NCBI GenBank assembly: GCA_050084515.1
Contig: CM114271.1
Coordinates: 6,758,001 to 6,822,000, forward strand
Length of the DNA: 64,000 nt
Reading direction: 5' to 3'
Origin: Blasia pusilla
Taxonomy: Eukaryota
The notes below the pieces were generated by a model. It searched no databases, was not told the DNA's origin, and was given only the letters and a program-made list of their open reading frames with translations. Every line of letters begins with the position of its first letter. Position 1 is the first letter of the stretch. This document shows positions 9,441-57,149 of the stretch, piece after piece. The position numbers and the translations under genes were made by a program.

Positions 9441-9960
9441 TGTCACGTCTTTTAGGATAGATCGGTGAGATGATCTAGTAGAGCGCCTTCGTGAGTTCTA
9501 GAGGACACGCTCAGTAGATTGAGGATGCCCTGTTGAGGCCCCGGGAAACCTGAGAGAGCACGTTTCCCCTTTGTTTCCGCTCATTTGGAGCCATATTTAG
9601 GAACTAACTATTTTAGTGAAGTATCATTTTGAGTATATGATCAACTTTTTATTTTTGGTAAGTGGCCCTTGACCTCCTACATCATGTCAAGAGCCAAGGA
9701 GGTGACTTGGGAGCATAGGTTACCATGGAGAGAGCTTGGGAGAGGGGAGGGGTATACCTCAAGGAGAGAGAGCTTGAGAGCTTATTCCCTCTTTGTTGAA
9801 CCTCTTGGTATGAGGCCGCGAAGCTATGGTCTTGCTTCCCTTGTGTGTGTAATCCAAGCCTCTCATTAGGAGAGTGGGTTTGGTTGACATTGAGAGAGAT
9901 ATGTGAGAGTGCACACACGTGAGAACTATGGTGTTGTGAGAGAGATTGGATCTTATTTTA
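9441..9960 (+). repeat. Terminal repeat block A (~520 bp), A1 of copy 1, followed by unique 5' leader (9961-10038)
   Basis: Homologous to 10166-10681(-), 19303-19804(+), 32975-33467(-), 55685-56202(-) and ~57050-57591(-); all begin tgtcac(g/a)tct.ttaggatagat. Confidence 0.9.
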
Positions 9961-10038
9961 CAAAGAGAGAATGAGTGAGTGAGAGAGCTTCATGGGGAAG
10001 CTCCCTGGTCACTCACTAGTTTTGCAGGTTGGGGATCG

Positions 10039-10813
10039 TGTCGTGCACATACACATCGCTACACAACATACATCGTTGTCATCGAACACACATACAAACA
10101 CGCACGATCCCTGCTAACTCATGGCATCCAAACAAAGAGACAAGAAGAACCAAAATATCTCCAATAAAATAAGATCCAATCTCTCTCACAACACTATAGT
10201 TCTCACATGTGTGCACTGTCACATGTGTCTCTCAATGTCAAACCAAACCCACTCTCCTAATGAGAGGCTTGGATTACACACCCAAGGCAAGCAAGACCAT
10301 AGCTCCGCCGCCTCATGCCAAGAGGTTCAACAAAGAGAGAATAAGCTCTCAAGCTCTCTCTCCTTGAGGTATACCCCTCCCTTCTCCCAAGCTCTCTCCA
10401 TGGTAACCTATGCTCCCAAGTCACCTCCCAACCTATGACCTGATGTAGGAGGTCAAGGATCACTTACCAAAAATACAAAGTTGATCATATATTCAAAATG
10501 GTACTTACCTAAAATAGTGAATTCCTTAATATGGCTCCAAATGAGCCGAAACGAAGGGAAAACCTGCTCTCTTAGGTTTCCCGGGGCCTCACCATGTCAT
10601 CCTTGACCTACTGAGCATGTCCTCCACTACTCACAAAAGCGCTCTACTAGATCCCACCGATCTATCCTAAAAGACGTGACACTTGTTGTGCGCATATACA
10701 TCACTACACAACATACATCGATGTCACCGAACACACACACACAAACACGCACGATCCCATTCTAACTCATGGCATCCAAACAACGAGACAAGAAGTACCA
10801 AAATATCTCCAAT
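10039..10813 (-). repeat. B1-A2-B2 repeat cluster of copy 1 (B1 10684-10813, 2-bp spacer, A2 10166-10681, B2 10039-10165)
   Basis: The ~127-bp block B (tgt(c/t)gtgc..tatctccaat) occurs on both sides of block A. Same arrangement at 32862-33597. Confidence 0.9.
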
Positions 10814-10993: not shown

Positions 10994-11140
10994 CTATGTA
11001 CATCTGTGACATATCCATCGTCCCCTCGGAACCCTAGTGAGAGGTGGCGTCAAACATGTCATATGCCATCCTCTCGAACACCCATCACAAACTAGCATAG
11101 TGGCTCCACCACGGGCGGAACCACACAACATACACTGCAA
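10994..11140 (-). pseudogene. PHD finger (C4HC3) at C-terminus of retroelement Pol, copy 1
   Basis: CMLCGSARGGATMLVCDGCSRGWHMTCLTPPLTRVPRGRWICHRC in ORF 10994-11218. Confidence 0.9.
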
Positions 11141-11219
11141 GCCTGTAGAAACTATTGCTAAGCTCGGATCAACTGTACCTTCAATGTTTGGAAGATGACA
11201 TGGCGCACATTTACGCATG

Positions 11220-13620
11220 TGGTCCTTTCAAACCATACCATTGCGTACCTCCAATAAGATAACACCGGATTGCAAAACCTCACGCACTCTCAAGATAGTG
11301 CGCCCTGCAGTCACATTCAACGTCGTGGATGCCGTCTGCTACAAGTAGACATGGTCTCCCTGATGAAACCTCCGGATAGTAGGTTGATAACCACCTCCCC
11401 AAATAGTCGCATACCTCAACATATCCCGATATTGCATAATCGCCAAGTTCTCAAACGCCATGGGCATCACTCTCCGAAATAACTCAGCCCTGTGAGAACA
11501 TGTTTGCATCCATATATCAAGGTCATCAAGGTTCAACACATCATTAACATTTTGACAAATGGTTGTAGGTAAATCTAGCTCTCGGCCATAAAGCAACAAG
11601 TACGGTGAGAAAGACACTAAGGACGCCTCCCTGCTGAATTTGTATCCCATCGCCAACGATGGCAACTAAAGGTCCCAATCTCCTAGGTGACCTCTCTACA
11701 AGCCATACTTGCGTAGTCCTCTCTTCACCGTCTGCACAACTCGCTCCGCTAGTCCATCCGCCTCAGGATGATCTCGCGAAGTAGTGTGGTGGTCGATCAG
11801 TGCTTGATCACACAAGGCCTTAAACTCCCGGCGGAATTCTGTACCATGGTCTGTCAACACCTCAGCTGGTGCATCGTAATGACTCAACACTCAACCTAGG
11901 AAGTCATACGCTACTCCCTCACTTGCTTTGTCAGGCAATGAAACCAACTCTATCCACTTCGAGAAGTGCTCGACCATCACCAACACATAACGACTATGGC
12001 GCTCCGTTAAAGGCAAAGGTCCGAAAAAATCCAAACTCCATCTATAACCTAAACCCATGATGGGAAGTGGATGCAACTATGGAGTTGGAACATTGAACAA
12101 TGCTCGGACTCGATCACACACCATGCATCTGGCAACAAACTATTGAACATCAGTCTGCATGCCTTCCCACCAATACTGAATCTGGAGCAAGCTATATGTC
12201 CGCTTCACTACAAAATGATCCAACTCCTCGTGGGCATCACACACCAAACGTGCTCTCTGCAAAGGATGAGGCACTACACGCACTCTAACATCCTCCCACA
12301 CTCGCAACACATGTGTGCCCTCCCACCGGAACCTTCTGGCTCGCTGTAGGATGCGATCCAGCTCTCTAGCACCCATTGTGCTCGCGACGTTGCCAGTACG
12401 CGGTACTCCAAGACCACTCCATCGTTGTGAATATCTTGGCCTCATGTCGTCTCCTCACCGGCCTCTGTATCTAAGGACTCTCCATCAGACCTCACCATTG
12501 AAGTCTCAGCAATTTGGCTCTCCATAGCCAACAAGCCCAAATAGGTTGACGCATGTCATCCTGGCACCAGCTCCTCATCACTCTCACCATGCCAGCAAGC
12601 TCCAGTCGCATCTCGCTGACTTAGGTATGGATTACAGCTCAAACCATCTGCATCTTGGTTGAGCGTCCTAGGTCTATGCACCACTTGGAAGTCATACTCC
12701 TGCAACAAAAGAAGCCCACCTAGCAAGCTTCCCTGTAAGCTTGTCGGACTCCATCAACCACTTAAGTGGCTGATGATCAGTAATGATGGTAAAGGGATTG
12801 CCGAATAGATAACATCTAAAATATGCGACAGCCCACACTGTAGCCAAGCACTCACCCTCATACGAGCTATACTTCGCCTCTACAGCGTTGTTTCAGCGAC
12901 TAGCATAAGCCACCACGAACTCTACCATCATCGTCATGTTAGGTGGGCACGGCTCCAAGCCCCAACATGCTCCAATTCTTATGCAACTGGAAAGGATGCC
13001 CCGTGATTGGTCTCCTCAATATGGGCGCAAACGTCAATCTGTCCTTGAGCATCTGAAATGCTCTCTCTTGCTCATCCCCCCAGTACCACTCCTGATCCAC
13101 CTTGGTCATCAAGGTTAGCGGCTTCGCAATCGAACTGAAACCTTTGACGTATCGTCGATAGAAGTTTGCCAATCCCATGAATGCACAAACTCGACTCACA
13201 TTTGCAGGGCGTGGAATGCGTGAAATAGCTTGGATATAGCTTTAGCCCATGTAATTGAAATCATCGAAATACCTCCTCTAGATTTCGTTCATGCTCTTCA
13301 ACTGTGGCGCTAAAGACTACGATGTCATCAATATAACACCTAACAAAATCCAGACCTGCCAAGATCCTATCCATGACCCTCTGAAACTCAATCGGTACAT
13401 TCTTTAACCTGAATGGTAAGAACCGCCACTGGTACAAACAATCCTTCCCGTGAGGATTGATGCCCCAAAATGCCGTCTTTTGCCTATTCTCAAAATCTGA
13501 TAAGCAAGTGATGGTATCCGGCTCGCAAATCCAATGACTTGAAGATCTTTGCATGTCCAATTGCATGGAGACCCTATCGGACTTCGTCTACCGATTGATA
13601 GATCAGTAATCTCCACCAAA
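11220..13620 (-). pseudogene. Gypsy-type RT-RNaseH-integrase, disrupted, copy 1
   Basis: RT: FLPFRLKNVPIEFQRVMDRIL..CYIDDIVVFS, FMGLANFYRRYVKGFSSIAKPL. Integrase: WSLDFFGPLP..VMVEHFSKW..EVLTDHGTEF..HPEADGLAERVVQTVK (DDE). About 0.4 kb of RT N-terminus is missing relative to copy 2 near 13615. Confidence 0.92.
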
Positions 13621-13884
13621 TCTCAGAGATGAGATAAAGGAAGTCTCATCTCCATGTGCAGTACTCGGAACCACATTCGATGTTGTGGTTATCATCTCCT
13701 GGCGTACCTGCAAAACATCCCAAGAAGTCCAAGGGTGTCTCTCCCGATCACCCCTGGTGTGTGGATCTCCTTGGGTCTCGCACCCAGCCGCTGCCTCAAC
13801 CGCCTCGGTAGGCATGGGGCTCACCAACGCAACAGTTGTGATCTGTCGCATCCTCAACCGACGCTGCTTAGCTACTCCTAAGCT

Positions 13885-14835
13885 GAAAATCCATGTCAAG
13901 CAGTTCAGGTCCATTGCCTGACCCAAGACATGACGTCGTGATGCCTCTGATCATGACGGTACTTCCATCACTCCTGTGGGGAATCCCATTGCTCGCTCTC
14001 GCTCATCGACGTTGGGCTCCACCAACCTCTGTACTTGGTCATCCCAAACCAAGCCAGGTCCGGCTTCCATGAATACAGAGGAAGCAGGAAAACTCACCAA
14101 TGTGGGAAAGGCTGCACATGGCCTACCATTCCTGTTGACCACACTCAACGGTGGTTGATCATCTAGCCTCACTGTCTGTGATCGACAGCCAGGATCCAAT
14201 ATAGAATCCACCAAAAAATTGGAGGGGCACTCCACTCTTGCATATGCCCTCCGTAACACCTTGTATGGTACCAAGTTGGTCCACCAAAGATGCGGGCGAT
14301 GTGCTCGTGAACCCACATTTTCCGCATCTAACAACATTGTCGGGCCGATCCATGCGCGCACCTGATGTGCAGTCGTCACCACGCGGGACCTTGAATTGCC
14401 CAAAATTGGCACATTCTCCGAAATGAATGTTGGAGAACGAGGCTGATGCTCCTATAAATGTTGCAAGATCCGCATCATCTCCCAAAACAACTTGGACCGA
14501 GTGCAACTAACCCGCTACCTCGTCTAGCACTCAACTGGCCCTGACAGAGCCAACCAACAATGACCAAGTCTATGGTCCCTACCCGCTCCAAGTCCTATGC
14601 CCCCAACAATGAAATGTCCCTCGGTAGGGAACTCTTGTAACCTTGAATGGCGGATGCAGACAACAAGTTGGGAAAACGGAGGCGTAACAACGCCACATGG
14701 TGAAGTGAAGTGAAGTGCGCCTCGAAACATCATCAATCTCCACATACAAGTACTATTGCACGCATACTCCAACGTGCAAAACAACAGCTAACCTAGTGCG
14801 GATCCCTCCAAAGAGATCAACCACCCAAATACTCT
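13885..14835 (-). pseudogene. DNMT3-like C5 DNA cytosine methyltransferase domain inside pol, disrupted, copy 1
   Basis: Motif I VDLFGGI, II YLYVEIDD, IV VIVGWLCQG, VI TFISENVP, VIII LDAENVGSRAHRPHLWWTNL, IX/X ERERAMGFPTG..RRHVLGQAMDLNCL, in canonical order across frameshifts. Confidence 0.85.
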
Positions 14836-15229
14836 TCTCTAGGATGCACCACACAATCGGGGTGGTGTCCAAATGGGTCATAGCAACACTCTTGCCTACT
14901 TGGGGTTCATGTGACCGGTCACACTATGGTGCAAGTGTCTCGCTCCACGGGGTCTGCGCATGCTTAGTGGCTAAGCGTCGAAGCTCCTCAATGGAGCCCC
15001 AAAGTGGCACCTCTCCTCCACAGACTAATGCGGCTACCATGACACTCCTCTCCATAGAAATGTCAGGAACGGGAGTATCCTCTGCATGGACATGTCCCTC
15101 AATCAAATCACTACGCCAAGTGATGGCATTGCTAAATGCTACTAAGGTCGCCATCTCTCTTGGCCGTCGCTCGATCACTGCATGTGTGAATCGTACACGT
15201 GATGAGCTAAGGTGCCCATCACCTGACTG

Positions 15230-17700
15230 CCATACTTGTCTGTAAGACGTTGACTCCTCCCAGTAATCCAAGGAAAACCCCATCGGATATGACACTTCTC
15301 CACCAACCAAGATGTCGTAGGACTCTACATCAATCACTATCACCTTGGCTTGCACCATGGACTCATCTGTAGGGATGTCCCGGGCGAATCCTCACCACAA
15401 CCTCTTGTCAGGTGATATACTATGTGGTACTAGCTCCACCCAAGGATGTCTGTATCCGGAATGGACAACGCTCCACATCGGCTCTCGTCAAGCCCAATCC
15501 TCTGAATGACGCTTTTCCCAACATCAGGGGTTACGCTCCTGAATCCAAATAGACGCGCTATGGACTAAAACCTCTACCTCCGGGACTCACCAACTGGAAG
15601 ACCTCTCCCCGGTTATCCAAGAACACAACACTAGGAGAAACCATGGCACGCTCTATCGCGGGTCTAGCAGGCATCTCCGCCATCCTAGCGACATGACCGC
15701 CATGAATCGCGTGGACGGCCCCCAAAGATTCGCCTCCAAGGGCAGGTCCATCACCTCCTCTACAATCACCTCTGAACGTGATGCAGAAACTCCAACTCCA
15801 CGCTCACATAGCATAGCGGCTAGCCAAAAAACCTCGGCGTACGTACCTCCCAACATCATAACATCGGAAGCATAAAATAAAGGAGCGCGGTACACAACGG
15901 TGGTCGCCCCCAACAACATGCTCGACACATGCCCCTCCTGAGCATCAACAATAGGAGTCGTCGCACTTGCTTCTCCCATTTCTCTCTGTGCCTTCACACC
16001 AACAACATCACCAACTCTCCAGGAAGTCTAATTAGGATCCATCGATGGGGTCCTCATCGCCTCGGACAAGGTAAAAGACTGAGGAAGCCTAGTCTGTTTC
16101 TTGGCTTCCCCTCGCTATGGATCCAACTCTGCGGCTCCACGTCACAACTGCGGCAGCCTCCATCTAGGCAACCCTGCACATCCAACCAAGATCCTCCATA
16201 TTTTTGGCTGCTCCATATGATGTCGATACCACGGATCTGGCATCGGTCAATCTCAATGCCATAGCGGAAATCTGCTCTTGTAGTTGATGTTTCTGAGCAG
16301 CCATCCTAGCCTCACGCTCGACGTCTCCCTTGACACGTCTAGGTGGTGGAACTCTACCTCCACGTGCAGCTCCACCACCCTGTCGGACAACTCTAGCTTC
16401 TCGTCCCCCAACGGGACCACCTGGTGCACGATCTCTAGGCCCACCCGGACCGGCTACTCGCTCTTGTGCCCTCTGTGGCCCTCGGTCCGGACGTAACTCA
16501 TTATGTAAACTGAAACACCTGGCGAGTGTATGAATATATGTCTGACAATAATCACATTGATAACCTCCTGGTATAGCACCATCTCCTTCTCCATGGTGAG
16601 GCACACGTCCATGACCCTGACGAGTGCAATCACGCTGATGATGAGCTCCACCACATGACCAACAAGTAGTCGTAGGCAGCTGCTACTGAGCCGCATATGA
16701 AGGCACAGGTCTTTGTGGCATGGCCTCCCGATATCCTCCCTGAGCTCTTGGTGCCACAGTCGACCTATCTCGGAGTCCACGTTGCTGCACAGGTGGTGCA
16801 GACAATCGTGACTGCTCTCGCCTAGAACCCATGGTGGCTACGCTCTCCTCCGCCATGTTGCGCTCAATGTTCTTGGCAGTTCTAAAAACATCTCTCAATA
16901 TAGGGGAGGTGTTCATAAGAAGCACCCCCTCCCGCACACGTGTCCGCAGGGTCCGGTCCAGCATCGCGTACCATGATTGGATAGCCTGAGCCTCTATCAC
17001 CCCTTGAGTGACGTTCATCAACCGATGCAAGCGAGTGTAAGCCTCACGCAAACTCTCACCTGGGCGCCTCTGAAAGTCATGGATGCTCTGCAACTTCTCC
17101 GTCTGTACCCCCTGGTAGCTCGCCATCAACTCAGTGAAGAACTCAACCAAGGGGTTGAACCAGGGACAAACCCGACTAGACCGTGCAACTGCTCCAGTGT
17201 GAGTGACCCCTCCTAAAACATCACTAGTGGAAGAGGAAGTAGCCTCTTTTGACTCCTCCTCCTCATCTGGGAACGGCTCCGTCCATGACACATAGTGTGG
17301 GTTATAGTAGAGTCACCATGTCTCAATCTCCTGGGCATATCTATGGGAGAACTCATGATAATCGTCCATGGGCGGCCCCTCTAAATGCTCAAACATATCG
17401 TTCCATGCTGTATACGGGTTGAACTCTCTAGAGTTCCTAGCCCGCTGTGAGTCACACCAACTCCTAAACTCCGCAATGAAGTTGTGTAGCTCTATAGTGC
17501 CAATAGCACCCAAAAATCTACGCGATCCTCTACCCCGGTCGTCCATCTCGTACGCCCAACTGGTAGGACCACTCAATGTGTACGGTGGATCACTTACACA
17601 CTCCTCTATACGCTCACTCTCGTCTGAAGATGACACAAAAGGAGATAGAGGTGGTCTCTAACGTGGAGACCCTCGAAACCTTGCACCACTCCGGGTAAAC
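15230..17700 (-). pseudogene. Gag (two CCHC knuckles) and aspartic protease, disrupted, copy 1
   Basis: Gag-like FQRRPGESLREAYTRL (16683-17291); knuckles CWSCGGAHHQRDC (~16625-16665) and CDYCQTYIHTLARC; protease LDSGA..YDILVGG (intact as RILLDSGAQ in copy 2). Confidence 0.8.
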
Positions 17701-19302
17701 CCTCCAAAGCTACTCTCAGGTCCACTACCTCGCCTCTCAAAATCCCGGAAGGACGCCGTGATGGCCCTCGTGTCCTTCTCACATGATCACTCTCAATCTC
17801 GTGAGATATCCCTCAATCACTCAAACTAAACATGCGGCACTCAATCTACACTCTCTCATTGAGACGTGTGTTGTGCGGCAACAAGCAGCGTGGTGCGGCA
17901 AAACAACCAATCTATCGTCTCATCGACAAACCATCCTCAACTCTGGACATCCCACACAGGTCTATGTCCCCTAACCCATACATCATCGATGCTCCTAGCA
18001 TTAGCACGAAACCCAATATCCCAAATAATTTCCCAATATCTGGAAATCCCTCACACGTGCAGGGTAAGAGACCAAAATGGGTAACGTGACAATCATATGG
18101 ATGTCGCTCCTCGGCAACTGCAAATCTCGACTCCAACTCGGTCGTGAAGACAACTCCTCCAATCAGAAAGTCACACTCCTCTCGTACTGACGCTGCTCAA
18201 ACCTCCTCGATGTGCGGTGCAGGTCCAGTGGTCCGGTGCGGCACTGGCGGCATGGAACAGCTACAAACAGCACGGCACTCGGGAATGGGGTGTGGCACTC
18301 AGCGGCATATCCTCCTCAATCAGAAATTCACACGCTCTACTCCTTAGTGAAGGAGTGGCTCCGCGATCAAGATGGTACGGTGCGGCCACGAGCGGCACGG
18401 CGCGGCAATTGGCGGCGCGTTGCGGTTACAGGCGTCACAGCACGATACTCGATTGTCGTCGAGCAGCTACCAATCACAACATAGCAGCATGAAATGAAAA
18501 CTCAAAAACCATAACCCTGGATCACCTGCCATCATAGGTTGATGACGAAACTACGATGAAGGTGGCGGCCAAACCAAAGTACGTGGTGGCGGCGCAAGTC
18601 AAGGAATCACCTGTGGTCGTGGAAAACCCTCCACTTCGTAATGGTGGCAATGGCAACCAAAAGGTGGACAACAGACGAAGGCGGCTAGGCGGCGGCGGCC
18701 GACGGTGGACGATGGACCATTGATGGTTGATTGTTGATGGTGATGGCCGAGCGTTGACGGTGACGGTTGACCATTGACCGTTGATGGTGTCTATGACGGC
18801 GACAGCCACCGCCGGCGCGGCGGCTGGTTTAGGGTTTGAACAATTTAACCCTAAAAATCGCCTAGCAATGGCAGTTTTGCAAGATTGACTATAACTTTTT
18901 GCTCCCAACTCCAAATTGTGCATTTTTTGTTGCAAACCTGCATAGCTTCATGATCTACAACATTGTTAAAAAATAATTGGAATTCAACATTCCAGTAACA
19001 ACTGACAAGGATTGTTGTAAAGCCCAATGTCTCTTTCTCCTGCATAAAATTCGGTAGCGCTTCCGTGTTGATTTCTCCCAACAAAAATGTAAAACATGTG
19101 AGAACACAAATCAGCAAGCTACATGGTGCTCCCAAGAGTACCGGCATGGGGTAACCTACCCCCATACTCAATCCCTATAAAAAATTGGGCAGCGCTTCCG
19201 CGCGCCACTCTTCCACACAAAAAATCAGAAAAGGAAACATCACAAGTAAGCGGCTCTTGCTCCGGTGAGCACTCCCATGAACCATTGAATGGGGAATACG
19301 AT

Positions 19303-19932
19303 TGTCACGTCTTTTAGGATAGATTGGTGAGATCTAGTAGAGTACCTTTGTGAGTAGTGGAGGACAAGCTCGGTAGGTCAAGGATGACCTACTGAGGCCC
19401 CGGGAAACTTGAGAGAGTATGTTTCCCCTTCGTTTCGGCTCATTTGGAGCCATCTTGAGGAACTTACTATTTTAGGTAAGTACCATTTTGAGTAAATGAT
19501 CAACTTTCTATTTTTGTTTAGTGGTCCTTGATCTCCTACATCAGGTCAAGAGCCAAGGAGGTGACTTGGGAGCATAGGTTTACCATGGAGAGAGCTTGGG
19601 AGAGGGGAAGGGTATACCTCAAGGAGAGAGAGTTTGAGAGCTTATGCTCTCTTTGTTGAACCTCTTGGCATGAGGCGGCGGAGTTATGGTCTTGCTTGCC
19701 TTGTGTGTGTAACATAAGCCTCTCATTAGGAGATTGGGTTTGGTTTGACATTGAGAGGGACATGTGAGAACTATGGTGTTGGGAGAGAGATTGGATCTTA
19801 TTTTATTGGAAATATTTTGGTACTTCTTGTCTCGTTGTTTGGATGCCATAAGTTAGCATGGGATCGTGTGTGTTTGTGTGTGTGTTCGATGACAGCGATA
19901 TATGTTGTGTAGCGATGTGTATACGCACGACA
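19303..19932 (+). repeat. A+B terminal unit (A 19303-19804, B 19805-19932), TG...CA
   Basis: Reverse-complement homolog of 10039-10681; followed by the TSD TATA. Confidence 0.9.
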
Positions 19933-26165: not shown

Positions 26166-27946
<1,781 letters not shown>

Positions 27947-32570: not shown

Positions 32571-33777
32571 TCTTTACTTTTGTTGGATATGACCGTTTTA
32601 TTTTGGAATCTCTCATGGGAATTTTTAGTCAATAAGATTATTTATTTTCTAAATGAGTATGCGGCCCGGTTTTGGGTTTTTTAAGAGAGTTGAGACAAGA
32701 CTAATACTAATAAGGTGGGAAGAAACAAGGGCAAAGACTAACACTATGGGATGGATGCAATTTAGAGCGCTTCCGGTTCCTACGGAAACACTACAAGAAA
32801 AAAATAACCCGAAAAAGAAAAATACAACAAGTCGAGATGAAGAATGATAGCTCCTCTCCAGTGTCGTGCGCATATACATCGCTATATAACATACATCGTT
32901 GTCACCAAACACACACACAAACACGCACGATCCCATGCTAACAACGAGACAAGAAGTACCAAAATATCTCCAATCAATAAATAAGATCAAATCTCTCATG
33001 AGATTATAGTTCTGACATGTGTGCACTCCCAAACCCACTCTCCTAATGAGAGGCTTGGGTTACACACACAAGGCAAGCAAGACCATAGCTCCGCCGCCTC
33101 ATGCTAAGAGGTTCAACAAAGAGAGAATGAGCTCTCAAGCTCTCTCTCCTTGAGGTATTCCCCTCCCCTCTCCCAAGCTCTCTCCATGGTAACCTCTGCT
33201 CCCAAGTCACCTCCTTGGCTCTTGACATGATGTAGGAGGTCAAGGGCTACTTACCAAAAATAGAAATCGATCATATACTCGAAATAATACTTGCCTAAAA
33301 TAGTAAATTCCTTAATATGGCTCCAAATGAGGCGAAACGAAGGGGAAACCTGCTCTCTCAGGTTTCCCGGGGCCTCACCATGTCATCCTTGACCTCCTGA
33401 GCCTGTCCTTCACTACTCACAAAGGCGCTCTACTAGATCCCATCGATCTATCCTAAAAGACGTGACATTTGTTGTGCGCATACACATCGCTACACAACAT
33501 ACATCGATGTCACCGAACACACACACAAACACGCACGATCCCATGCTAACTCATGGCATCCAAAAAACGAGACAAGAAGTACCAAAATATCTCCAATCGC
33601 TTCCCTAGCTGGTGGTTAGATCGCGCTCACTCCAAATAGCCATCTATCCCTACCTACCATGACATACATCTCTCGGACGCTAAGAGCAAGAAGGTCGGGT
33701 GCTCATGTGGCCCCATCGTTAGTCGCCTTCTTGTCATCCATGTCACAGACACAAGTCGGAATGTAGAACTACCTACT

Positions 33778-36700
33778 CTATGTACATCTGTGACATATCC
33801 ATCGTCCCCTCGGAACCCTAGTGAGAGGTGGTGTCAAACATGTCATATGCCATCCTCTCAAACACCCATCACAAACTAGCATAGTGGCTCCACCACGGGC
33901 GGAACCACACAACATACACTGCAAGCCTGTAGAAACTATTGCTAAGCTCGGATCAACTATACCGTCAATGTTTGAAAGATGACATGGCGCACAGTTACGC
34001 ACATGGTCCTTCCAAACCATATCATCGTGTTCCTCCAATAAGAGAACACCGGATGGCAAAACCTCAAGCACTCTCAAGACGGTGCGCTCTGTAGTCACAT
34101 CCAACATCGGTGGATGCCATCTACTGCAAGTAGACATAGTCTCCCTAATGAAACCTCCGGATAGTAGGTCGATAACCACCTCCCCCAATAGGCGTATACC
34201 TCAACGTATCCCAAAGTTGCGCAATCGCCAAGTTCTCAAACGCCATGGGCATCACTCTCAGAAACAACTCAGCCGTGTGAGAACATGTTCGCATCCATAC
34301 ATCAGGGTCATCAAGGTTCAACACCTTACCAAAATCTCGACGAATGGCCGTAGGTAAATCTAGCTCTCGTCCTTAAAGCAACAAGTACGGTGAGAAAGAC
34401 GCTAAGTATGCCTGCTTGCTGAATCTTTATCCCATCGCCAACCACGGCAACTCAAGGTCTCAATCTCCTAGGTGACCTCTCTACAAGCCATACTTGCGTA
34501 GTCCTCTCTTCACCATCTGCATAACTCGCTCCGCTAGTCCATCCGCCTAAGGATGATCTCGCAAAGTAGTGCGGTGGTCGATCTGTGCCTGATCACACAA
34601 GGCTTGAAACTCCCTGCGGAACTCTGTACCATGGTCTGTCAACACCTCAGTTGGTGTGCAGTAATCACTCAACATTCGATTTTGGAAGGCATACGCTACT
34701 CCCTCACTTGCTTTGTCAGGAAATGCAACCAACTCTATCCACTTCAAGAAGTGCTCGACCATCACCAAAACATAACGACTATGGCGCTCCGTCAAAGGCA
34801 AAGGTCCTGCAAAATCCAAACTCCATCTATAACCTAAACCCATGATCGAAAGTGGATGCAACTGTGGAGTCAGAGCATTGAACAATGCTCAAACTCGATC
34901 ACACGCCATGCATCTGGCAACAAACTGCTAAACGTCAGTCTGCATGCCTCTCCACCAATACTAAATCTGGAGCAAGCTATATGTCCGCTTCAATCCAAAA
35001 TAACCCAACTCCTCGTGTGCATGATGCACCAAACATGCTCTTTGCAAAGGATGAGGCACTACACGCACTCTCACATCCATCCTCCCTACTCACAACACAT
35101 GTGTGCCCTCCCATCGAAACCGTTTGGCTCGCTGTAGGATCCGATCCCGCTCTCTAGCACCCATTGTGCTTGCGACGTTTCCAGTACGCAGGTACTCCAA
35201 GACCACTCCATGGTCGTGAATGTCTTGGCCACTTGTTGTCTCCTCTCCGTCCTTCGGATCTAAGGACTCTCCATCAGACCTCACCATCAAAGTCTCAACA
35301 ATCTGGCTCTCCATAGCCAACAAGCCCAAATAGGCTGACGCATGCCATCCTAGCACCAACTCCTCATCACTCTCACCATGCAAACAAGCTCCAATCGCAT
35401 CTAGCTGACTCGGGCATGGGTTACGGCTCAAACCATCTACATCCTGATTGAGCATCTAAGGTCTATGCACCACCTAGAAGTCATACTCCTGCAACAAACG
35501 GTCCCACCTTGCAAGCTTTCCCGTAAGCTTGTCGGACTCCATCAACCACTTAAGTGGCTCATGATCAATAATGATGGTAAAAGAATTTCCGAATAGATAA
35601 CATCTAAAATGTGCGACAGCCCAGACTGCAGCCAAGCACTCACCCTCATACAAGCTATACTTTTCCTCTGCAACGTTGTTCGAGCGACTAGCATAAGCCA
35701 CCACAAACTCTCTACCATCATCGTCATGCTGGGTGAGCACGGCTCCAAGCCCCAACATGCTCCAATCGGTATGCAACTGGAAAGGACGCCCCCTGATTGG
35801 TCTCCTCAATATGGGCGCGGACGTCAATCTGTCCTTGAGCATATGAAATTCTCTCTCTTGCTCATCCTCCTAGTGCCATTCCTAATCCATCTTGGTTATC
35901 AAGGTTAGCAGCTTCGCAATCAAACTAAAACCCTTGACTTATCGTCGATAGAAGTTCGCCAATCCCATGAATGCATGAACTCGACTCACATCTGTAAGGC
36001 GTGAAATAGCCTCTACCTTTGTTTGTTGCACACCAAGATCCCCAGGATATATCGTATGATCCAAGTACTCAATTTGGTTGTAGAAGAACTTGCACTTGCT
36101 TGGATGTAGCTTCAGCCAATGTAACTACAGTCGTTGAAACACCTCCTCTAGATGTCGCTCATGCTCCTCAACCGTGGCGCTAAAGACTACGATATCATCA
36201 ATATAACACCTAGCAAAATCCTGACTTGCCAAGATTCTATCCATGACCCTCTGAAACTCAGTCGGGGCATTCTTTAATCCGAATGGTAAGAACCGCCATT
36301 GGTTCAAACAATCCTTCCCGTAAGGATTGATGCCCCAAAATGCCGTTTTCTACCTGTCCTCCAATCTAATAGGCAACTGATGGTATCCGACTCGCAAATC
36401 CAATGAATTGAAGACCTTTGCATGCCAATCGCATCAAAGATCTCCTCAGGGATGGGCATGGCATACCTATCGGACTTCGTCTACCGATTGATAGGTCGGT
36501 AATCTCCACACATTCGCTTATCCGTCCAATTGCCATGCACATCCTCCTTGACGGGCATGACAATGGCAGATGCATACTCTCCATGCAACATCTCCACTAG
36601 TCTTGCTCCAACCAAGACATAGCTCCTACTCTAAGTCAAAGCCCTCTCCATGTCACTATACTTGTGGGGTCCTTGGAAGATCGGCGTGTCAGTCGATAAC

Positions 36701-36900: not shown

Positions 36901-37159
36901 CCCGTCTCGGACAATAGAACTCTAATCTCCACTTGCAATACCCGGAACCACACTCAATGTTGTGGTTATCATCCTCTAGCGTACTAGCAAAACATCCCAA
37001 GAAGTCCAAGGGTGTCTCTCCCGATCATCCCTGGAGTGTCGATCTCCTCTGGTCTAGCCCCCAGCCGCTACCTCAATCGCCTCGGTAGGCATGGGGCTCA
37101 CCAATGCAACAGTTGTGATATGTTGTGTCCTCAAATGACGCTGCTCAGCTATTCATAAG

Positions 37160-38030
37160 TTGAAAATCCATGTCAAGCAGTTCAAGTCCATTGCCTGACC
37201 CAAGACATGACGTCGTGATGCCTCTTATAGTGATGGTACTGCCGTCACTCTTATGGGAAATCCCATCGCTCGCTCTTGCTCATTGGCATTGGGCTCCACC
37301 AACCTATGTACTTGGTCATCCCAAACCAAGCCAGGTCCGGCCTCCTTGAATGCATAGGAAGCAGGAAAACTCACCAATGTGGGAAAGGCTGCCCGTGGCC
37401 TGCCATTCCTGTTGACCACAGTCAACGGCAGTTGATCATCTAGCCTCATTGCCTGTGATCGAAGGCCTGGATCCAATATGGAATCCTCCAACAAATCGGA
37501 GGGGCGCTCCACTCTTGCATATGCCCTCTGTAACACCTCATGTGGTACCAAGTTTAGAAACGTGGAAAACTCACCACGCGGGACCTCGAATCGCCCAAAA
37601 TTGGCACATTCCTCTAAATGTATGTTGGAGAACAAGACTGATGCTCTTGTAAATATCGCAAGATCCACATCATCTCCCAAAATAACCTAGACCCAGTGTC
37701 AGCTAATCTGCTACCTCATCCAGCACTCGATTGGCCCTAACACAACCAACCAAAAATGACCAAGTCTATGGTCCCTACTCGCTCCAAGTCCTGCGCCCCC
37801 AACAATGAAATGTCCCTCGGTAGGGAACTCTTGTAACCCTGAATGGCGGACGTAGACAACAAGTTGAGAAAACGGAGGCGTAATAGCGCCATATGGTGAA
37901 GTGAAGCGCCCTTCGCAAGATCATCAATCTCCACATACAAGTACTGTTGCACGCACACTCCAGAGTGCAAAACAACAGCTAACCAAGTGCTAATCCCTCC
38001 AAAGAGATCCAACGCCAGAATACCCTTCTC
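37160..38030 (-). pseudogene. DNMT3-like C5 cytosine methyltransferase domain, disrupted, copy 2
   Basis: ALDLFGGIST..YLYVEIDD..DISLLGAQDLERVGTIDLVIFGWLC (ORF 37737-38192); EQERAMGFP (ORF 37225-37680). Motif VIII region partly deleted. Confidence 0.85.
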
Positions 38031-38399
38031 TAGGATGCACCACACAATCAAGGTGGTGTCCAAAGGGTTCATAGCATCTCTCTTGGCTACATGGGGTTTG
38101 TTTGACCCGTCACACTCTGGTGCAAACGTCTCGCTCCACACGGTTTGCACATGCTCAGTGGCTAAGCGTCGAAGCTCCTCAGACGAGCCCAATGCGGCAC
38201 CTCTCCTCCACGGATTGATACGGCTACCATGACACTCCTCTCCATAGAAATGTCAGGAACAGGAGTATCCTCTGCATGGACATGTCCCTCAATCAAATCA
38301 CCAGGCCAAGTAATGGCATTGCTAAATGCTGCTAAGGTTGCCATCTCTCTTGGACGTCGCTCGATCATTGCACTTGTGAATCGAACGGGTAATGAGCTA

Positions 38400-40760: not shown

Positions 40761-41169
40761 GAGGTGCAATAAGAGGAGAGGAAGAGAGGAAGAGAGGAAA
40801 CTACCTTCAACCGAAAGAGACACTTTTTTTTAAAGAGAGTTTCCTGTGATTTGAAGAGAGTTTCTCTTGGGTTGAAGAGAGGAAACTTTTTGTGTGAATT
40901 TTTTTGCACTTTTCTACTCAGTTCTTAAGCACTCCCACAGTTTTCTTTTTCTCATTCACTTTTTGGCAACCCATTTGAGTCCGACGAGTTGCAAATTACA
41001 CAAAATTTAGAAAATTGAAAATCAGTGGAATCATAAGTTTGGAACCAATAACTTTTTCCATCCAAGGTCTGGAAAAAATCTATCATTTGCTCTAAGCTAA
41101 ATAGAGTTCAAGCTCAAAGTGAAGGTTGTGGAAAAATGAAAGTACAATCTAAAACCTCATTTTTCATCC

Positions 41170-44100
41170 TCAAAGTGGTTTGTTTAAAATACTTCGCACT
41201 TCTTTGAGGGACAAAATTGGTTGGTGGATTCCTACTCCTACCTCCGACTCTCTTAAAACTACAAGCAACACATAGTACATGTGCTTATAAGGGAAATACC
41301 TTTTCCCACTTGTCTCTCTTTGGACAAAGTCATCACATGAACATGTGGGAAAGCAACAGATGTGCACCACATACATCCCTATGACACTTGAATTTACAGT
41401 GTTGTTCCCAACCTAATATATCCTTCCTATTCCATTGCCAATCTGGACATCTTTCGTGGCGATGATCTCCATTTTTTCCTCCCGAGTTGATGCAATTCGC
41501 TTTGCTCTCTCCACCGTTGGCCTATACATTTTATTTCTCTTCACCCCATTTCTAGACTCAAAGAGAAATACTGGATTGAAATCATCCACCTTCTCCGAGT
41601 ACATGTTGACATCAATCTTGGGTTGAATACAAAATGCGAAGGTCTCTGTAATGTGAACATGCTCTAAACTTCCTCAGTCTACGAGTATGAAACTGGCACT
41701 TGTAAGATTGTCCACTTTGTCTTGAGTGCAATTCGTACCTATGGCAATGGGCCAAATCGTGGGGGTATTCCCTGGAGCTCTAATGGCAGCCGGATAAGAC
41801 TTTCAAAAAGCCCAAGATTCATTTGGGCAGAAGAAGTACTTCAATTGATTCCCAGTCCTCGTGAAATGATCAAAGGTTTTGAGTCCCCAAAATCCAGCAG
41901 TGGTCGTCCAGTCCTTGTACAGTTCTTATTTAGGAAAGTGCCGCATGCTCTCCTAATGCCATAAGATCCTGCCCTGCAAGTGGATCCACGTCCAGGGTTG
42001 CTCCGAGATATATGCCACCGTTTGAGGTTGCAATCCATCGCAATGACCGGAATCCCATATTGTTGAACCACCCCAGCGATCGGATGTTGCGAACTTCCAG
42101 CAACTAAGGGCTTTTGAAAAAAAACATTCACGGATTTTGGAGAAGTTACTCCATCACGGATTTGGGAGCAATCCGGGGTCTCCAAATACATGGGCGGCGT
42201 GATTTCCTCGTCCAAATCAATCACCGGGTTCCTCGATGTTGCCTCTTTACCTGCGTGAAGTCAAGATACTTATCTGGTCTCCACGAGTCTCGCTCGGACT
42301 GGTCTACCACCATATGTATGGGACGTCTTGAAACGCGCCCACAAATATCCCCACCAATGTGTACGTCTTGCTCCAGGGAAGTTTCAACTACGCACCAATT
42401 GAAGGCTTTCACATAGAGTTTCTCATCACCCGATCTCACAGCCGCCTTGACATAGAGCTCGTAGATCAAAGGCCCCCCTTCCTTTTGTTATGCCTTTTGT
42501 GAGGAAGATATGGGATGATGCAGACTATAGCATTGCTCTTGCCTGGTCTTGTTGGCATGCTTCCATAAGTGAAATTCTTTGGCATGCTTGTGACGACCTC
42601 CAAGAGGAATGAACACTTTCTGCTCCACTTGTGTTGGGGCAAAGGGTATTTTCATGAATGTTCAATCCCTGCAACAACGGCAATATGAGAAGGGAACCAA
42701 AATAGCTCCAAAGTTAGAGAAAAAAGCTACATGTTGGAACTACACGGGTTGCAAGTCAAAGGTATCCCATGAATGACTCTGTGACCCGTCAGGTTCCGAT
42801 GTGTTGCAACACTCACGAACCACCTACTGCAACCCATCCGATTCCGAAGGGTTGCAAGAAACTTTGGCCACTCCAAGTTGGAAGATCCAAGTGCAAGTCA
42901 TCCCAAACCCATCCGGGTCAAATTATTTGCAGGCCTTGTATACATGCAACTTGCATACTTTTATTTGGGTTACACCAACATTCTTGATGCAACCCGTCGG
43001 TTTCCGACTGGTTGCACACTTAGGCAACCTGTCCGTTTCCGACGGGTTGCACACTCGGGCAACCTTCCCCATCCGACAAGTTGCTTGGTTTCTTCGGCTT
43101 GAAATCCCTATAGTGCCCGCGCTTCTCAACTTGAGCTGCAACTTTTCAAACAATTCTCAGCGTGAGCTTGACAAGACAAAATAGTTAACTCACTTGCCGC
43201 ATGAAGTTTCCCCATTATCTCATTCGTACAGTCCACCAACTCATCCAAGAGCACAACTCTTTGTACTTCCCCTCAATTGCATGCTTCCTCCACCACCCAT
43301 GAAGTTCTTCTTGGCATTCCATGGCATGTTTCAAGGTTTTGTAGTCCTCGCAGCGTTGGAGTAGAGTGACATGCTCTGTCCTCTTATTCTCCTTGATGCA
43401 AGATTTGTTGTACCAAGTCACAGACTCTTGCTAATGGAAAGCATCCAACCTTTCCCTCTCCGGTTGAACCTCTCCACCCTAGAACACTTCCCTGATAGCA
43501 ATCCACCCAGGTTGTGCATTGTCCCCCACGAACCCATAAATTTCCGGAGGTGGCCTTTTCTTTTCCTTCACCACCTCCAATAAGAGTAACCAACATATCT
43601 TCAAACTGCCAACGTCTTCTGCTTTTACTTCACAGACAAATATAGTTTTGAGTCCCTTCTCCACATGGTCATAAACATGAGCACCCATGGTCAACCATCC
43701 ATTCAGCACTCTGTAGCAAATATCAAAGCTTACCCAGCTTCTGTGAAGATCTTCCCCTTCATTCATTCGATCTATAATATCGAGGTCACTCGACGGTCCT
43801 GTCGTTGATATTTTTGAAGATATAAGCCCTGGATCCTTCGCCTCCTTGGCCCATGAACTGCCATCTCTAAGTGAATGGAAATGTGGAGTTGGCCTTGATT
43901 CTGGAAATGACATCCATTTCGGCCATCTTTCCATCCAGTACCTGTATTTGACGTAGCAAATTTCGAAAACATTCAGGATCGGCGAGAAATGCGAGATTTT
44001 TCGTGAGTTGTTTCTCCTCAATAGTCGTGATCTCACCCTGCCCAAGAATTCCAAGCAGTTGTTCACAAATTTGTGATGTTGTTGTTAACTTGATCACTCC

Positions 44101-45210: not shown

Positions 45211-45778
45211 CAGAAGATTCCACCGGGAGGAGATTGAGATTAAGAATAAGAATGAGAATGAGAATGTTTAATTTATAGTGAATAGTGACTCAGATTCTCC
45301 TGACAGAATTTGACTGACAAGATGCTGTTTGGTAGGTGAGATTGTCATACGGAATGGATTCAATCCTGTTGGAACCTGTCGGAGTCCGATAGGTTGTAGA
45401 ATTAGGGAATCAGACACGTGGGTTGCAAAGCTCATAGTTCCATTTTATGTTAGTGTCCCAATGCGAGTTGCAACCCGTCGGAGTCCGTTGGGTTGGTACC
45501 CCCTTCTTGTCTAACCAATGTGATTTGAGTCAAGATTGCTAGCATCAAACACGAGACATCGCATGGATTTGCTACGACAACCCGTTGGGGACTGTTACGG
45601 GATCCAAAGGTACCTAACCTTGCTTTCCCTTTTGCATCTCGCGTCGATTTCTCTTATTCAATTAACCGTACAAACCGTGAGTGCAGTTTTTCCGTATGTT
45701 GGGAAGTGTCTAACTCCGGGTAGACCTTGTCACCCGTCAGAGGGCAACGTGTTGCCTCGGAACTATGCTTTGTCGCAT

Positions 45779-46215: not shown

Positions 46216-46534
46216 GTTCCCACGTCCAAAGTTCCATAATGGCCGATACGTCGCCGTCGGTATGACGGTGCGACCCAACGGTCAGCTCAACGGCTCGAAA
46301 AGTGTAAATAGCCAAGGTTTTGCTCACTTTCATTTTTTTTTTCGCGATTGCATGTGCTCTTCCGTGCAGCAGCTCAACAGATACCAAGGGGAGTGAGGAG
46401 GGTGAGGGCGCTTCATCATGAAACGCAAAGAGAGTTGGGTCTAGGATCACGGCGATTCATCGCGAGACCATTCAAGGGAATTTTCGTGCACAGAAAGAGA
46501 CTAGACTGTCGAGGGGGAAGCATTGACGGGAACC

Positions 46535-57088: not shown

Positions 57089-57149
<61 letters not shown>

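Follow-up and report, generated by a model that had tools for sequence, protein, structure and literature searches.

The window, the whole stretch of 64,000 nucleotides analysed here, carries two minus-strand copies of one Ty3/gypsy-type element that are ~88% alike. The domain order of the element is gag, protease, C5 cytosine methyltransferase, reverse transcriptase (RT), RNase H, DDE integrase and PHD finger. We consider it probable that both copies are old, dead insertions of a Ty3/gypsy-type family, Gypsy-DNMT3, whose ends are split repeats and not plain LTRs. The only host gene in the window encodes an alpha-tubulin. The features of the two copies are:

9441..10039, plus strand: copy 1 far end, repeat A and the first ~80 nt of the leader, inverted relative to the coding strand (outer flank TATA)
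10040..10813, minus strand: copy 1 downstream split repeats B1 (10813-10682), A2 (10681-10166) and B2 (10165-10040), from repeat alignments, boundaries good to ~3 nt
11000..11134, minus strand: copy 1 PHD finger at the Pol C-terminus (PF00628, 40.6 bits against a cut-off of 24, E 2.7e-10)
11765..12259, minus strand: copy 1 integrase, H2C2 zinc domain and DDE core (Integrase_H2C2 E 1.8e-13, rve E 4.2e-12)
12713..13632, minus strand: copy 1 RT and RNase H (RVT_1 E 1.1e-10, RT_RNaseH_2 E 2.1e-8, YIDD box 13324-13335)
13786..14947, minus strand: copy 1 predicted DNMT3-like C5 cytosine methyltransferase, two frame changes, five stops, Leu for Pro in motif IV (motifs, PDB and protein matches, family HMM)
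14924..15700, minus strand: copy 1 aspartic protease (DSGA 15534-15545; aligned through copy 2 to the Asp_protease_2 part of relative P0038)
16164..17657, minus strand: copy 1 gag (Retrotrans_gag E 0.0098, below cut-off; zinc-knuckle-like CWSCGG 16647-16664)
17658..19302, minus strand: copy 1 leader, 1.6 kb, no recognisable domain (0 Pfam families in three frames)
19303..19932, plus strand: copy 1 upstream side, repeat A and repeat B, inverted relative to the coding strand in an abnormal arrangement (self-blastn, six-way repeat alignment)
32861..33597, minus strand: copy 2 downstream split repeats B1-A2-B2 (self-blastn, repeat alignment)
33784..33918, minus strand: copy 2 PHD finger (PF00628 E 9.1e-10; ICHRC 33784-33798)
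37138..38150, minus strand: copy 2 predicted DNMT3-like domain (motifs I-VI in one frame with three stops, VIII deleted, IX-X in another frame with three stops)
40765..53860, no strand assigned: 13.1-kb foreign insertion splitting copy 2 inside the leader/gag border (flanking matches to copy 1)
53861..56206, minus strand: copy 2 leader (53861-55689) and upstream repeat A1 (55690-56206) (self-blastn, repeat alignment)

The Ty3/gypsy Pol order of protease, RT, RNase H and integrase is present, with an H2C2 domain and a DDE core in both copies, and the methyltransferase is an insert between the protease and the RT; in copy 1 it lies between the DSGA motif and the YIDD box. Pfam profiles, motif positions and relatives thereby confirm the arrangement read from the letters in the original prediction, a DNMT3-like methyltransferase between the protease and RT of a gypsy Pol that ends in a PHD finger. 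The Pol stop codon of copy 1 is at 10994-10996, and its protease has no Pfam match on the window sequence itself. By tblastn, the copy 1 gag aligns with residues 9-405 of Marchantia Mp_6g11220 (P0275), the RT/RNase H region is matched by P0282, P0301 and P0038, and Marchantia gene models are collinear with the window from gag into RNase H. Self-blastn equates copy 1 14376-17567 with copy 2 37571-40764, and copy 1 17553-19302 with copy 2 53861-55611, the two leaders being 84-90% alike; both junctions of the 13.1-kb insertion show a ~15-nt imperfect duplication.

The span 13885-14835 originally given for the methyltransferase is right for copy 1, because motifs I (LFGG, 14804-14815), IV (GWLCQG, 14538-14555), VI (ENVP, 14407-14418), VIII (AHRPHLWWTNL, 14272-14304) and X (LGQAMD, 13909-13926) all fall there, and the family HMM extends the whole domain from ~14947 to 13786. 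Ordered motifs had been claimed for both copies. This stands for copy 1; copy 2 keeps the order and motifs I, VI and X, but has lost motif VIII, since 98 bp (14278-14375 in copy 1) are replaced there by 16 bp (37555-37570). Motif IV reads Leu-Cys in both copies and motif VIII reads R.H in copy 1, so that the Pro-Cys and RxR signatures of a C5 methyltransferase do not occur in the window copies. The catalytic Cys was correctly read as retained in GWLCQG of copy 1; in copy 2 the Gln codon that follows it is a stop. The frame of copy 1 changes twice (near 14700 and 14503) and is interrupted by five in-frame stops (14924-14926, 14753-14755, 14595-14597, 14452-14454 and 13951-13953), and copy 2 has six stops and one frame change. 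Because of these stops and frame changes, and of the missing motif VIII in copy 2, neither window copy can methylate anything.

The decayed domain is nevertheless recognisable, with matches much stronger than chance would give. A 241-residue single-frame read-through (13786-14508, stops as X) matched 772 proteins at E<=1e-3 and 405 at E<=1e-10 (best 1e-83), and all 17 of its PDB matches at E<=10 are DNMT3A or DNMT3C; the window alone found DNMT3A in the PDB at E 0.006. In the PDB alignment, AHRPHLWWTNL falls on motif VIII of DNMT3A and ERAMGFP on its ERVFGFP stretch, as had been suspected from their resemblance. The copy 1 read-through with X at the breaks scored 471 bits over positions 16-381 of the 424 of the family HMM. 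Pfam returned no methyltransferase match on the separate ORF pieces of the window; searched on single frames, PF00145 aligned in the correct register but stayed under its cut-off of 22, scoring 14.0 and 11.7 bits (copy 2 at E 0.034 over profile 48-102, copy 1 at E 0.17 over profile 84-120).

For the profile searches, natural intact relatives were used in place of a frameshift-corrected consensus. All 20 reached PF00145, with a best E of 2.3e-14. Their joint profile matched DNMT3A in the PDB at 3.4e-25 and DNMT3B at ~4e-22, as against 7e-13 to 5e-9 for DRM, 8e-9 for M.HhaI and 1e-4 for DNMT2; the 29 best PDB sequences are DNMT3A, DNMT3B or DNMT3C, and DNMT1 is absent among the 56 PDB matches. 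The DRM chains match only profile positions 36-163, at the DRM C-terminal half, as expected for rearranged domains, and the domain is not DRM-like because its motif order is unrearranged. An AlphaFold model of the relative P0159 (pLDDT 88.5) was searched with Foldseek, and the matches listed, 48 ranks deep, are without exception chains of DNMT3A, DNMT3B or DNMT3C (best E 3.9e-18; TM 0.75-0.85 on the target). By the profile of its relatives and by predicted fold, the domain is thus assigned as a DNMT3-like C5 methyltransferase.

Whether the domain is in frame with Pol in young copies had been named as a point on which the claim could fail, and it did not fail there. L133 encodes DNMT, RT and RNase H in one ORF; P0038 encodes CCHC, protease, DNMT, RT, RNase H and integrase in one 2188-aa ORF; and L119, with one stop in 2417 codons, encodes protease and PF00145 (51.1 bits) before that stop and RVT_1, RNase H, H2C2, rve and PHD after it. 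The in-frame DNMT3-type domain in a gypsy Pol and the DIRS-like repeats that define Gypsy-DNMT3 occur in relatives, and the window copies show the same arrangement with broken reading frames. The element is a land-plant member of the Gypsy-DNMT3 type already reported.

The methyltransferase domain of the relatives is under purifying selection. Of 125 relatives spanning motif IV, 123 retain the catalytic Cys (79 as PC, 42 as EC); E-N-[VTAI] is present in 112 of 125 and RxR in 161 of 207. Among 28 pairs of relatives, 18 were saturated and gave no ratio. A dN/dS comparison among copies had been proposed, and its outcome depends on the copies taken: five unsaturated pairs of relatives gave 0.10-0.18, namely L119/L121 (0.14, Ks 0.25, 332 codons), L119/L118 (0.12), L118/L121 (0.10), L083/L101 (0.17) and L085/L101 (0.18), and the window pair gave 1.07 over 206 codons, which is neutral divergence. 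L083/L085 gave 0.83 and looks like two recent dead copies.

The family extends well beyond the window. The original prediction made its extension to embryophytes conditional on a land-plant host; it holds whatever the host, with collinear polyproteins annotated in Marchantia polymorpha, Calypogeia fissa, Riccia sorocarpa and Sphagnum. To DNMT3/DRM history, on which this extension had been expected to bear, the present results add nothing. Among metagenome contigs, 317 of 444 pattern matches encode relatives; viral contigs gave only distant phage C5 methyltransferases of another family, in short pieces of 25-48% identity. Two domain orders exist, protease-DNMT-RT in land plants and RT-RNase H-DNMT-integrase-PHD in Scenedesmus and many other contigs. 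A DNMT tree, from which 7 of 59 rows (<300 residues, including Riccia, M. paleacea and two Sphagnum fragments) were left out, splits exactly by position in Pol at one branch (SH-aLRT 99). A chance neighbourhood, in which a piece of some host DNMT3 gene or pseudogene has ended up inside an ordinary gypsy element, would account for the broken state of the window copies and for nothing more. The same order recurs in both window copies, in the Marchantia models and in the ORFs of P0038, L119 and L133, and this recurrence, together with the metagenome relatives and the split of the tree, leaves that reading with a negligible probability; the ORFs of L133 and P0038 rule it out.

The ends of the element are split direct repeats in the DIRS-like form A-coding-B-A-B. 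The arrangement A1-INT-B1-A2-B2 is seen in copy 2, L122, L133, L143 and L150; among 19 loci it is complete in four, and its downstream part is found in two more. Two identical LTRs with a tRNA primer site, as in Ty3/gypsy elements, were not found, and no TGG/tRNA-type primer binding site was seen by eye after repeat A. A G-rich tract precedes B1 in L122, and a decayed purine tract upstream of the copy 1 B1 is homologous to this G-run. A perfect 4-bp target duplication flanks three of the four complete loci (L133 GGTC, L143 CCAA, L122 AAGG), the flanks of L150 agree at three of four positions, and the relatives have TG...CA termini. Copy 2 has no matching 4-bp flanks (CAAG and CTGG); the repeats of copy 1 are rearranged, its 19303..19932 segment terminating in ...ACA followed by TATA, and its outer flanks are TATA and TATA. 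The repeat form, typical of DIRS elements (PMC5890265, as described there), and the missing primer site would suit an element of the DIRS order that relies on a tyrosine recombinase. Such an origin is nonetheless highly improbable: both copies have the DDE core and the H2C2 domain, Pfam finds no tyrosine recombinase domain in the window element or in the two large ORFs of L119, and the 1.6-kb leader lacks one because no Pfam family matches in any of its three frames. With the TG...CA ends and the target duplications in three of four relatives, insertion in the relatives is of the integrase type despite the DIRS-like repeats.

Abundance and transcription were assessed in one DNA run (X17) and three RNA runs (X19-X21) that bear the species label of the window's best holder; the RNA evidence consists of raw reads aligned to the element, with no RNA run among the indexed-run matches. 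In X17, 15,486 of 12.43 million records fall on 1.5 kb of the element, 11,617 of them less than 90% alike to the window copy, and reads differ by indels at each of the two positions where the frame changes (474 of 1016 reads at one, 169 of 437 at the other). In runs with this label, the family amounts to ~600 copy-equivalents per Gb. The RNA runs contributed 434, 372 and 550 reads. In them the first mate lies on the plus strand for 92-99% of the depth, compared with ~50% in the DNA run, and the call of sense-strand RNA assumes the usual library type. These reads establish that some copies are transcribed and are not a sign of full-length or intact transcripts. The same reads bear out the proposal that the Leu of motif IV is decayed Pro, because those from other copies mostly encode Pro at the middle base of the codon (1016 of 1138 DNA reads and 50 of 54 RNA reads).

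At the C-terminus of Pol, the PHD finger has as its best PDB relatives CHD4, PHF12, DPF3/DPF2, KAT6A, KDM5A/B PHD1, PHF21A, ATXR5, AIRE and UHRF1, with no ING, BPTF or TAF3 among the best 60 matches. Fingers of these proteins read unmodified H3K4 or the bare H3 N-terminus, and this kinship suggests that the element encodes a putative reader of the unmodified-H3K4 class. In chromoviruses, which are Ty3/gypsy elements too, the integrase ends in a chromodomain; their LTRs are plain and they carry no methyltransferase. They share with the present family the C-terminal fusion of a histone-tail reader to the integrase, although the reader here is a PHD finger and not a chromodomain.

We tentatively propose, at somewhat less than even confidence, a mechanism for live members of the family. 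The methyltransferase, translated within Pol, would methylate newly made cDNA of its own element or a copy that has just inserted. The PHD finger linked to the integrase would be of the unmethylated-H3-tail class and would steer integration toward chromatin without H3K4 methylation, with a logic that can be likened to that of the chromodomain of chromoviruses and of the ADD domain of DNMT3.

The same anatomy could also serve a domain that acts on RNA, or non-catalytically in the particle, and not on element DNA, as de Mendoza et al. suggested for a LINE-borne DNMT (PMC5890265). In the same account the Klebsormidium gypsy DNMT gave no DNA methylation in yeast, a result that its authors called inconclusive because human DNMT3B failed too. 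Also in favour of such a role, motif IV reads Glu-Cys in place of Pro-Cys in 42 of the 125 relatives, and the motif X region reads GQAMD and not the usual form. We find it unlikely: the fold and all DNA-methyltransferase motifs match DNMT3A/B and not DNMT2 (3e-25 against 1e-4), and the Cys, ENV and RxR signatures are kept under purifying selection.

Somewhat less likely still is an enzyme active in trans on the host genome, one that methylates rival transposons or damps its own family at low host cost, and does not act on its own cDNA. Self-limitation of this kind was raised by de Mendoza et al. (PMC5890265), and it would agree with a high copy number accompanied by only moderate RNA (over 1.5 kb, 372-550 reads for every 10-12 million records) and with strong C-to-T type decay of the window copy, which differs from the family by T or A in place of C or G at 88 of the 182 listed places in X17, and in the opposite direction at 34. 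The data agree with action in cis and in trans alike. The host, however, presumably has its own methyltransferases, since CpG in the flanking DNA is depleted to 0.39-0.46 observed/expected. Methylation of the element's own DNA, with integration guided by the PHD finger, remains the reading we tentatively prefer over a role in trans or on RNA.

The original prediction stated that retrotransposon-borne DNMTs were known in Symbiodinium and in gypsy elements of Klebsormidium, which is borne out by de Mendoza et al. 2018 (PMC5890265). Compared by description, KnitGypsy-Dnmt3 of Klebsormidium nitens shares with the present family an unrearranged DNMT3-type domain in a gypsy Pol, DIRS-like repeats with gypsy domains, intronless copies and a low Ka/Ks (<0.2 there, 0.10-0.18 for the five unsaturated pairs here) (PMC5890265). 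It differs in copy number, high here and described as 'fewer copies' in K. nitens, and in the PHD finger that ends Pol here, a word absent from the main text of that paper, figure content aside (PMC5890265). SymbioDIRS-Dnmt3 of Symbiodinium, as described there, likewise carries a DNMT3-like domain within Pol, has repeats of the A-coding-B-A-B form and exists in two domain orders, but it integrates by a tyrosine recombinase, whereas the window family uses a DDE integrase and leaves 4-bp duplications, and the hosts are unrelated (PMC5890265). The host DNMT3 of non-flowering plants shares the DNMT3-type catalytic domain with linear motifs; in the account of Yaari et al. 2019 (PMC6453930) these are cellular genes with DUF3444, in contrast to a transposon polyprotein module present here in hundreds of copies or more. 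Our literature search found no text on gypsy-borne DNMTs in bryophytes or other land plants, although supplements may list land-plant copies; in the portions consulted, PMC12344493 and bioRxiv 10.64898/2026.05.21.726589 only mention 'streptophytes', citing the 2018 work. What is new here is that the gypsy form is widespread in bryophytes, that it is abundant and transcribed in runs bearing the species label of the window's best holder, and that a PHD finger and integrase-type insertion occur alongside DIRS-like repeats.

Hosts hold transposons in check chiefly by DNA methylation, and a transposon with its own de novo methyltransferase therefore reverses the usual picture. To our knowledge, published cases of such DNMT-bearing elements come only from dinoflagellates and a single charophyte alga. 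With the present family, the benefit that a transposon derives from methylating DNA becomes a question for land plants too, among them the genetically tractable Marchantia. A broader view, which we hold as possible but doubtful, is that Gypsy-DNMT3 is no peculiarity of Klebsormidium but an old lineage, widespread in green plants, with two domain orders, still transcribed in at least one repeat-rich land plant at ~600 copy-equivalents per Gb (on the order of a thousand copies), mostly retaining the Cys motif, and a live player in methylation with its own reader of unmethylated H3K4. If true, a transposon-borne de novo methyltransferase with its own reader would take a live part in land-plant methylation. 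In addition, bryophyte entries named 'DNA (cytosine-5)-methyltransferase' may be transposon Pol fragments that distort counts of host DNMT3 genes.

The named relatives of the window element are land plants and the alpha-tubulin in the window is plant-type, whereas the host of KnitGypsy-Dnmt3 is K. nitens. The alpha-tubulin, judged by its sequence, is probably that of a land plant; it says plant-type only, because identities to a prasinophyte (95.9%) and to Naegleria (94.8%) are also high in a database that holds one representative per 90% cluster. Its identity is 98.5% to Musa, Vitis, Syzygium and Cannabis, 92.6-94.6% to Marchantia and 88.6% to two mosses.

The window contains, on its minus strand, two copies of one gypsy-type element whose Pol carries a DNMT3-like domain; the domain is under selection in a numerous, transcribed family, and insertion of the integrase type is seen in relatives. 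Self-comparison of the window gives the copies as 85–90% alike, with 14376–17567 of copy 1 pairing with 37571–40764 of copy 2 and 17553–19302 pairing with 53861–55611. An apparent third copy was rejected, as it is the upstream part of copy 2. The domain order of copy 2 is that of copy 1, and all three frames of the 1.6-kb leader of copy 1 are free of Pfam domains.

Features of the window (domains of copy 1 from high to low coordinates)
9441–19932, minus strand (body): copy 1, from self-comparison
32861–56206, minus strand: copy 2, from self-comparison, split at 40765–53860 by a 13.1-kb foreign insertion
Upstream of gag, minus strand: copy 1 leader
After the leader, minus strand: copy 1 gag, a weak Retrotrans_gag match and a zinc-knuckle-like CWSCGG
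15534–15545, minus strand: DSGA active-site motif of the copy 1 aspartic protease
14947–13786, minus strand: copy 1 methyltransferase, between protease and reverse transcriptase (RT)
13324–13335, minus strand: YIDD of the copy 1 RT, which is followed by RNase H (Pfam and motif)
After RNase H, minus strand: copy 1 integrase, H2C2 and DDE core
11134–11000, minus strand: copy 1 PHD finger, with the Pol stop directly after
About 26166–27600, minus strand: alpha-tubulin gene with introns (Tubulin_C E 1.9e-52); the window has no other host gene
22067–23047 and 30037–30570, minus strand: LINE-like RT fragments flanking the tubulin gene (RVT_1 5.4e-8 and 2.6e-11)

The foreign insertion is flanked on both sides by an imperfect duplication of about 15 nt and contains an inverted repeat (48694–49124 and 49225–49657, 93.8%); none of its 38 ORFs of at least 90 aa has a Pfam match. 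Just past copy 2, at 57128–57591, lies an older solitary repeat A (about 80% alike) with a (GA)n run and the leader start.

The original prediction placed C5 methyltransferase motifs I, II, IV, VI, VIII, and IX/X in both copies, and they are found at those places except for motif VIII of copy 2, where the stretch has been lost. A 241-residue single-frame read-through of the C-terminal two thirds, with stops as X, matches 772 proteins at E ≤ 1e-3 among 1.84 billion (best E 1e-83), and all 17 PDB matches of the copy 1 read-through at E ≤ 10 are DNMT3A or DNMT3C. The predicted membership of PF00145 is reached by all 20 relatives in our alignment and by 12 of 18 relative proteins scanned separately, whereas the window's own frames score only 14.0 and 11.7 bits against a cut-off of 22, the domain being split over three frames. 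When each break is read as X, copy 1 scores 471 bits over positions 16–381 of the 424-position family HMM. The copy 1 domain carries five stops and two frame changes, that of copy 2 six stops and one frame change, and in both a Leu stands in motif IV where relatives have the Pro of Pro-Cys. Over 206 shared codons the copies differ with Ks 0.110 and Ka 0.117, a ratio of 1.07, and their whole divergence is therefore neutral. The repeats inside one copy are 88.7–90.4% alike, about as diverged as copy 1 is from copy 2; both are old insertions that have decayed in place.

A profile built from the 20 aligned intact relatives retrieves, from all PDB sequences, DNMT3A (3.4e-25), DNMT3C (9e-24), and DNMT3B (about 4e-22), followed by the tobacco and Arabidopsis DRM enzymes (7e-13 to 5e-9), M.HhaI (8e-9), and DNMT2 (1e-4); DNMT1 is absent from the 56 matches. 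The DRM chains pair with the N-terminal motifs of the profile only, and do so through their own C-terminal half, a pattern that is the known DRM rearrangement, the Gypsy-DNMT3 family having the linear motif order. The AlphaFold model of the related protein P0159 (pLDDT 88.5, pTM 0.88) matches, among the matches listed, only DNMT3A/B/C catalytic domains (best E 3.9e-18, target TM-score 0.75–0.85).

The catalytic Cys is kept in 123 of the 125 matched proteins that span motif IV, as Pro-Cys in 79 and as Glu-Cys in 42; E-N-[VTAI] is retained in 112 of 125 and RxR in 161 of 207. To our knowledge, Pro-Cys is near-universal in motif IV of C5 methyltransferases, and a Glu-Cys active site is unusual among them. 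The Glu-Cys members, whose sources include the metagenome locus L133, are otherwise intact. Comparison among copies, proposed with the original prediction, indicates constraint: for eight metagenome copies with open domains, 18 of 28 pairs are saturated and the unsaturated ones give Ka/Ks of 0.10–0.18, the cleanest (loci L119 and L121) having Ks 0.25 and a ratio of 0.14 over 332 codons. A near-identical dead pair gives 0.83.

Named relatives come from Calypogeia fissa, Marchantia polymorpha, M. paleacea, Riccia sorocarpa, Sphagnum troendelagicum, S. jensenii, and S. fallax, with a more distant one in a 'pol' of Scenedesmus. These liverwort and Sphagnum sequences carry the retrotransposon-borne DNMT phenomenon into land plants, as had been suggested, whatever the host of the window. 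M. polymorpha alone has more than 12 gene models (e.g., Mp_6g11220, Mp_8g17980, and Mp_4g09160), and Marchantia models follow the window collinearly, starting in gag and reaching into RNase H. The domain is, as predicted, in frame with Pol in intact relatives: the related protein P0038 is one 2188-residue ORF of the order CCHC-PR-DNMT-RT-RH-IN, and a single ORF of L133 holds DNMT-RT-RNase H. In L119, the best-preserved relative, one in-frame stop (5083–5085) divides a gag-PR-DNMT ORF of 1369 aa from an RT-RH-IN-PHD ORF of 1047 aa. Either a single mutation made this stop or it acts as a read-through signal between methyltransferase and RT; it is absent from L133 and P0038.

In a second order, seen in Scenedesmus and many metagenome proteins, the domains run RT-RNase H-DNMT-IN-PHD. 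The DNMT follows RNase H in P0022, P0025, P0030, P0032, P0058, Scenedesmus, and many contigs, mostly with a PHD finger, and lies between protease and RT in P0038, L119, L133, and land plants. In a tree of 52 DNMT domains (7 short rows left out), one branch with SH-aLRT 99 parts the 12 rows of the first order from the 13 of the second. The window copies are sisters (100) within a 13-row clade (100) with liverwort and Sphagnum sequences, yet outside the subclade of those sequences (92).

The repeats of the element differ from plain LTRs. On the coding strand, copy 2 consists of A1 (about 517 bp, opening with TGTCAC), the leader with the coding region (INT), B1 (about 130 bp), A2, and B2 (ending CGACA). 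This A-INT-B-A-B arrangement is complete in 4 of 19 long metagenome loci (L122, L133, L143, and L150), and its downstream part is present in two more (L131 and L140). In the four complete loci, A begins TGTCATG, B finishes CACGACA, and a G-run directly precedes B1; where B1 meets A2, the end seems joined to the start. Perfect 4-bp duplications (GGTC, CCAA, and AAGG) flank the whole unit in three of them, the fourth being alike at three of four positions. According to the legends of Figs. 1e and 4c of de Mendoza et al. (PMC5890265), A-coding-B-A-B is typical of DIRS elements and is also found, with gypsy domains, in KnitGypsy-Dnmt3 of Klebsormidium nitens. In contrast to DIRS elements, the split repeats of the window family accompany a DDE integrase, without a tyrosine recombinase in Pfam scans.

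Copy 1 is rearranged: its body (INT-B1-A2-B2) runs opposite to the outer repeat units, an A on one side and A-B on the other (9441–10813; 19303–19932). At the two inner junctions, an element terminus abuts the two sides of one and the same four-base stretch where the leader starts; TATA flanks the copy on both outer sides. This looks like an integrase-type self-insertion, but it may also stem from an inverse nested insertion with later deletion, or from misassembly. The metagenome loci L109 and L110 have 468-bp inverted repeats (92%), 3.6 kb apart, around the DNMT region, and may represent a rearrangement like that of copy 1.

Reads of one DNA and three RNA runs, which share the species label of the best holders of the window, probably its own species, were mapped on 13550–15050 at a likeness of at least 85%. 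The DNA run places 15,486 of 12.43 million records there, 11,617 of them less than 90% alike and only 12 at least 99% alike; 1966 million letters give a mean depth of about 1130, which by arithmetic on the depth table is about 0.09% of all letters. The family thus amounts to roughly 600 copy-equivalents per Gb of genome; taking the 12 near-identical reads as coming from the window's own locus would bring it to the order of a thousand copies. The proposal that the motif IV Leu arose from Pro by decay is borne out by the middle base (14548), with Pro encoded in 1016 of 1138 DNA reads and 50 of 54 RNA reads. DNA reads also show indel differences at both frame-change sites (474 of 1016 near 14503 and 169 of 437 at 14700), and 351 of 418 differ at 14924–14926, the one of the five stops of copy 1 among the places listed. 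Among 182 listed places, copy 1 has T or A against a family C or G at 88 and the reverse at 34, an excess that is the decay expected of methylated cytosines. The RNA runs yield 434, 372, and 550 reads, and the first mate on the plus strand accounts for 92–99% of depth versus about 50% in the DNA run, which, given the usual stranded library type, means minus-strand (sense) RNA. Therefore, some copies are sense-transcribed and, as far as short reads show, most copies of the family lack the private defects of copy 1.

The best solved relatives of the PHD finger are those of CHD4 (1.4e-16), PHF12, DPF3, DPF2, KAT6A/B, KDM5A/B (first finger), PHF21A, ATXR5, AIRE, and UHRF1, and the best 60 PDB matches listed include no reader of trimethyl-Lys4. 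These fingers recognise an H3 tail whose Lys4 is unmodified or whose N-terminus is bare. By resemblance, the polyprotein would combine, at two places, what a DNMT3 enzyme works with: a catalytic domain and a module that reads unmethylated H3K4. We propose a mechanism in which the DNMT3-like domain, which the element's protease would either release or leave fused, would methylate freshly made cDNA, either inside the particle or immediately after integration, while the integrase-PHD would anchor the complex on nucleosomes that lack H3K4 methylation. New copies would therefore land in, and at once resemble, silent chromatin. The Glu-Cys variants count against this mechanism, as does the yeast assay of the Klebsormidium gypsy enzyme, the result of which is inconclusive in the text of PMC5890265.

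The Gypsy-DNMT3 kind is already known (PMC5890265); the main text of that paper does not mention the PHD finger, and passages of later papers (PMC12344493; bioRxiv 10.64898/2026.05.21.726589) name 'streptophytes (Gypsy-DNMT3)' only by reference to it. Full-text searches, and passage searches in individual papers, gave no account of Gypsy-DNMT3 elements from bryophytes or any other land plant; supplements may list some. The chief interest is that the question comes within reach of Marchantia genetics. The alpha-tubulin of the window is nearest to angiosperm representatives (98.5%), which gives no placement, tubulin being highly conserved and the database clustered; a land plant is the most likely host. 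The flanking DNA is CpG-poor, at 0.39–0.46 observed over expected.
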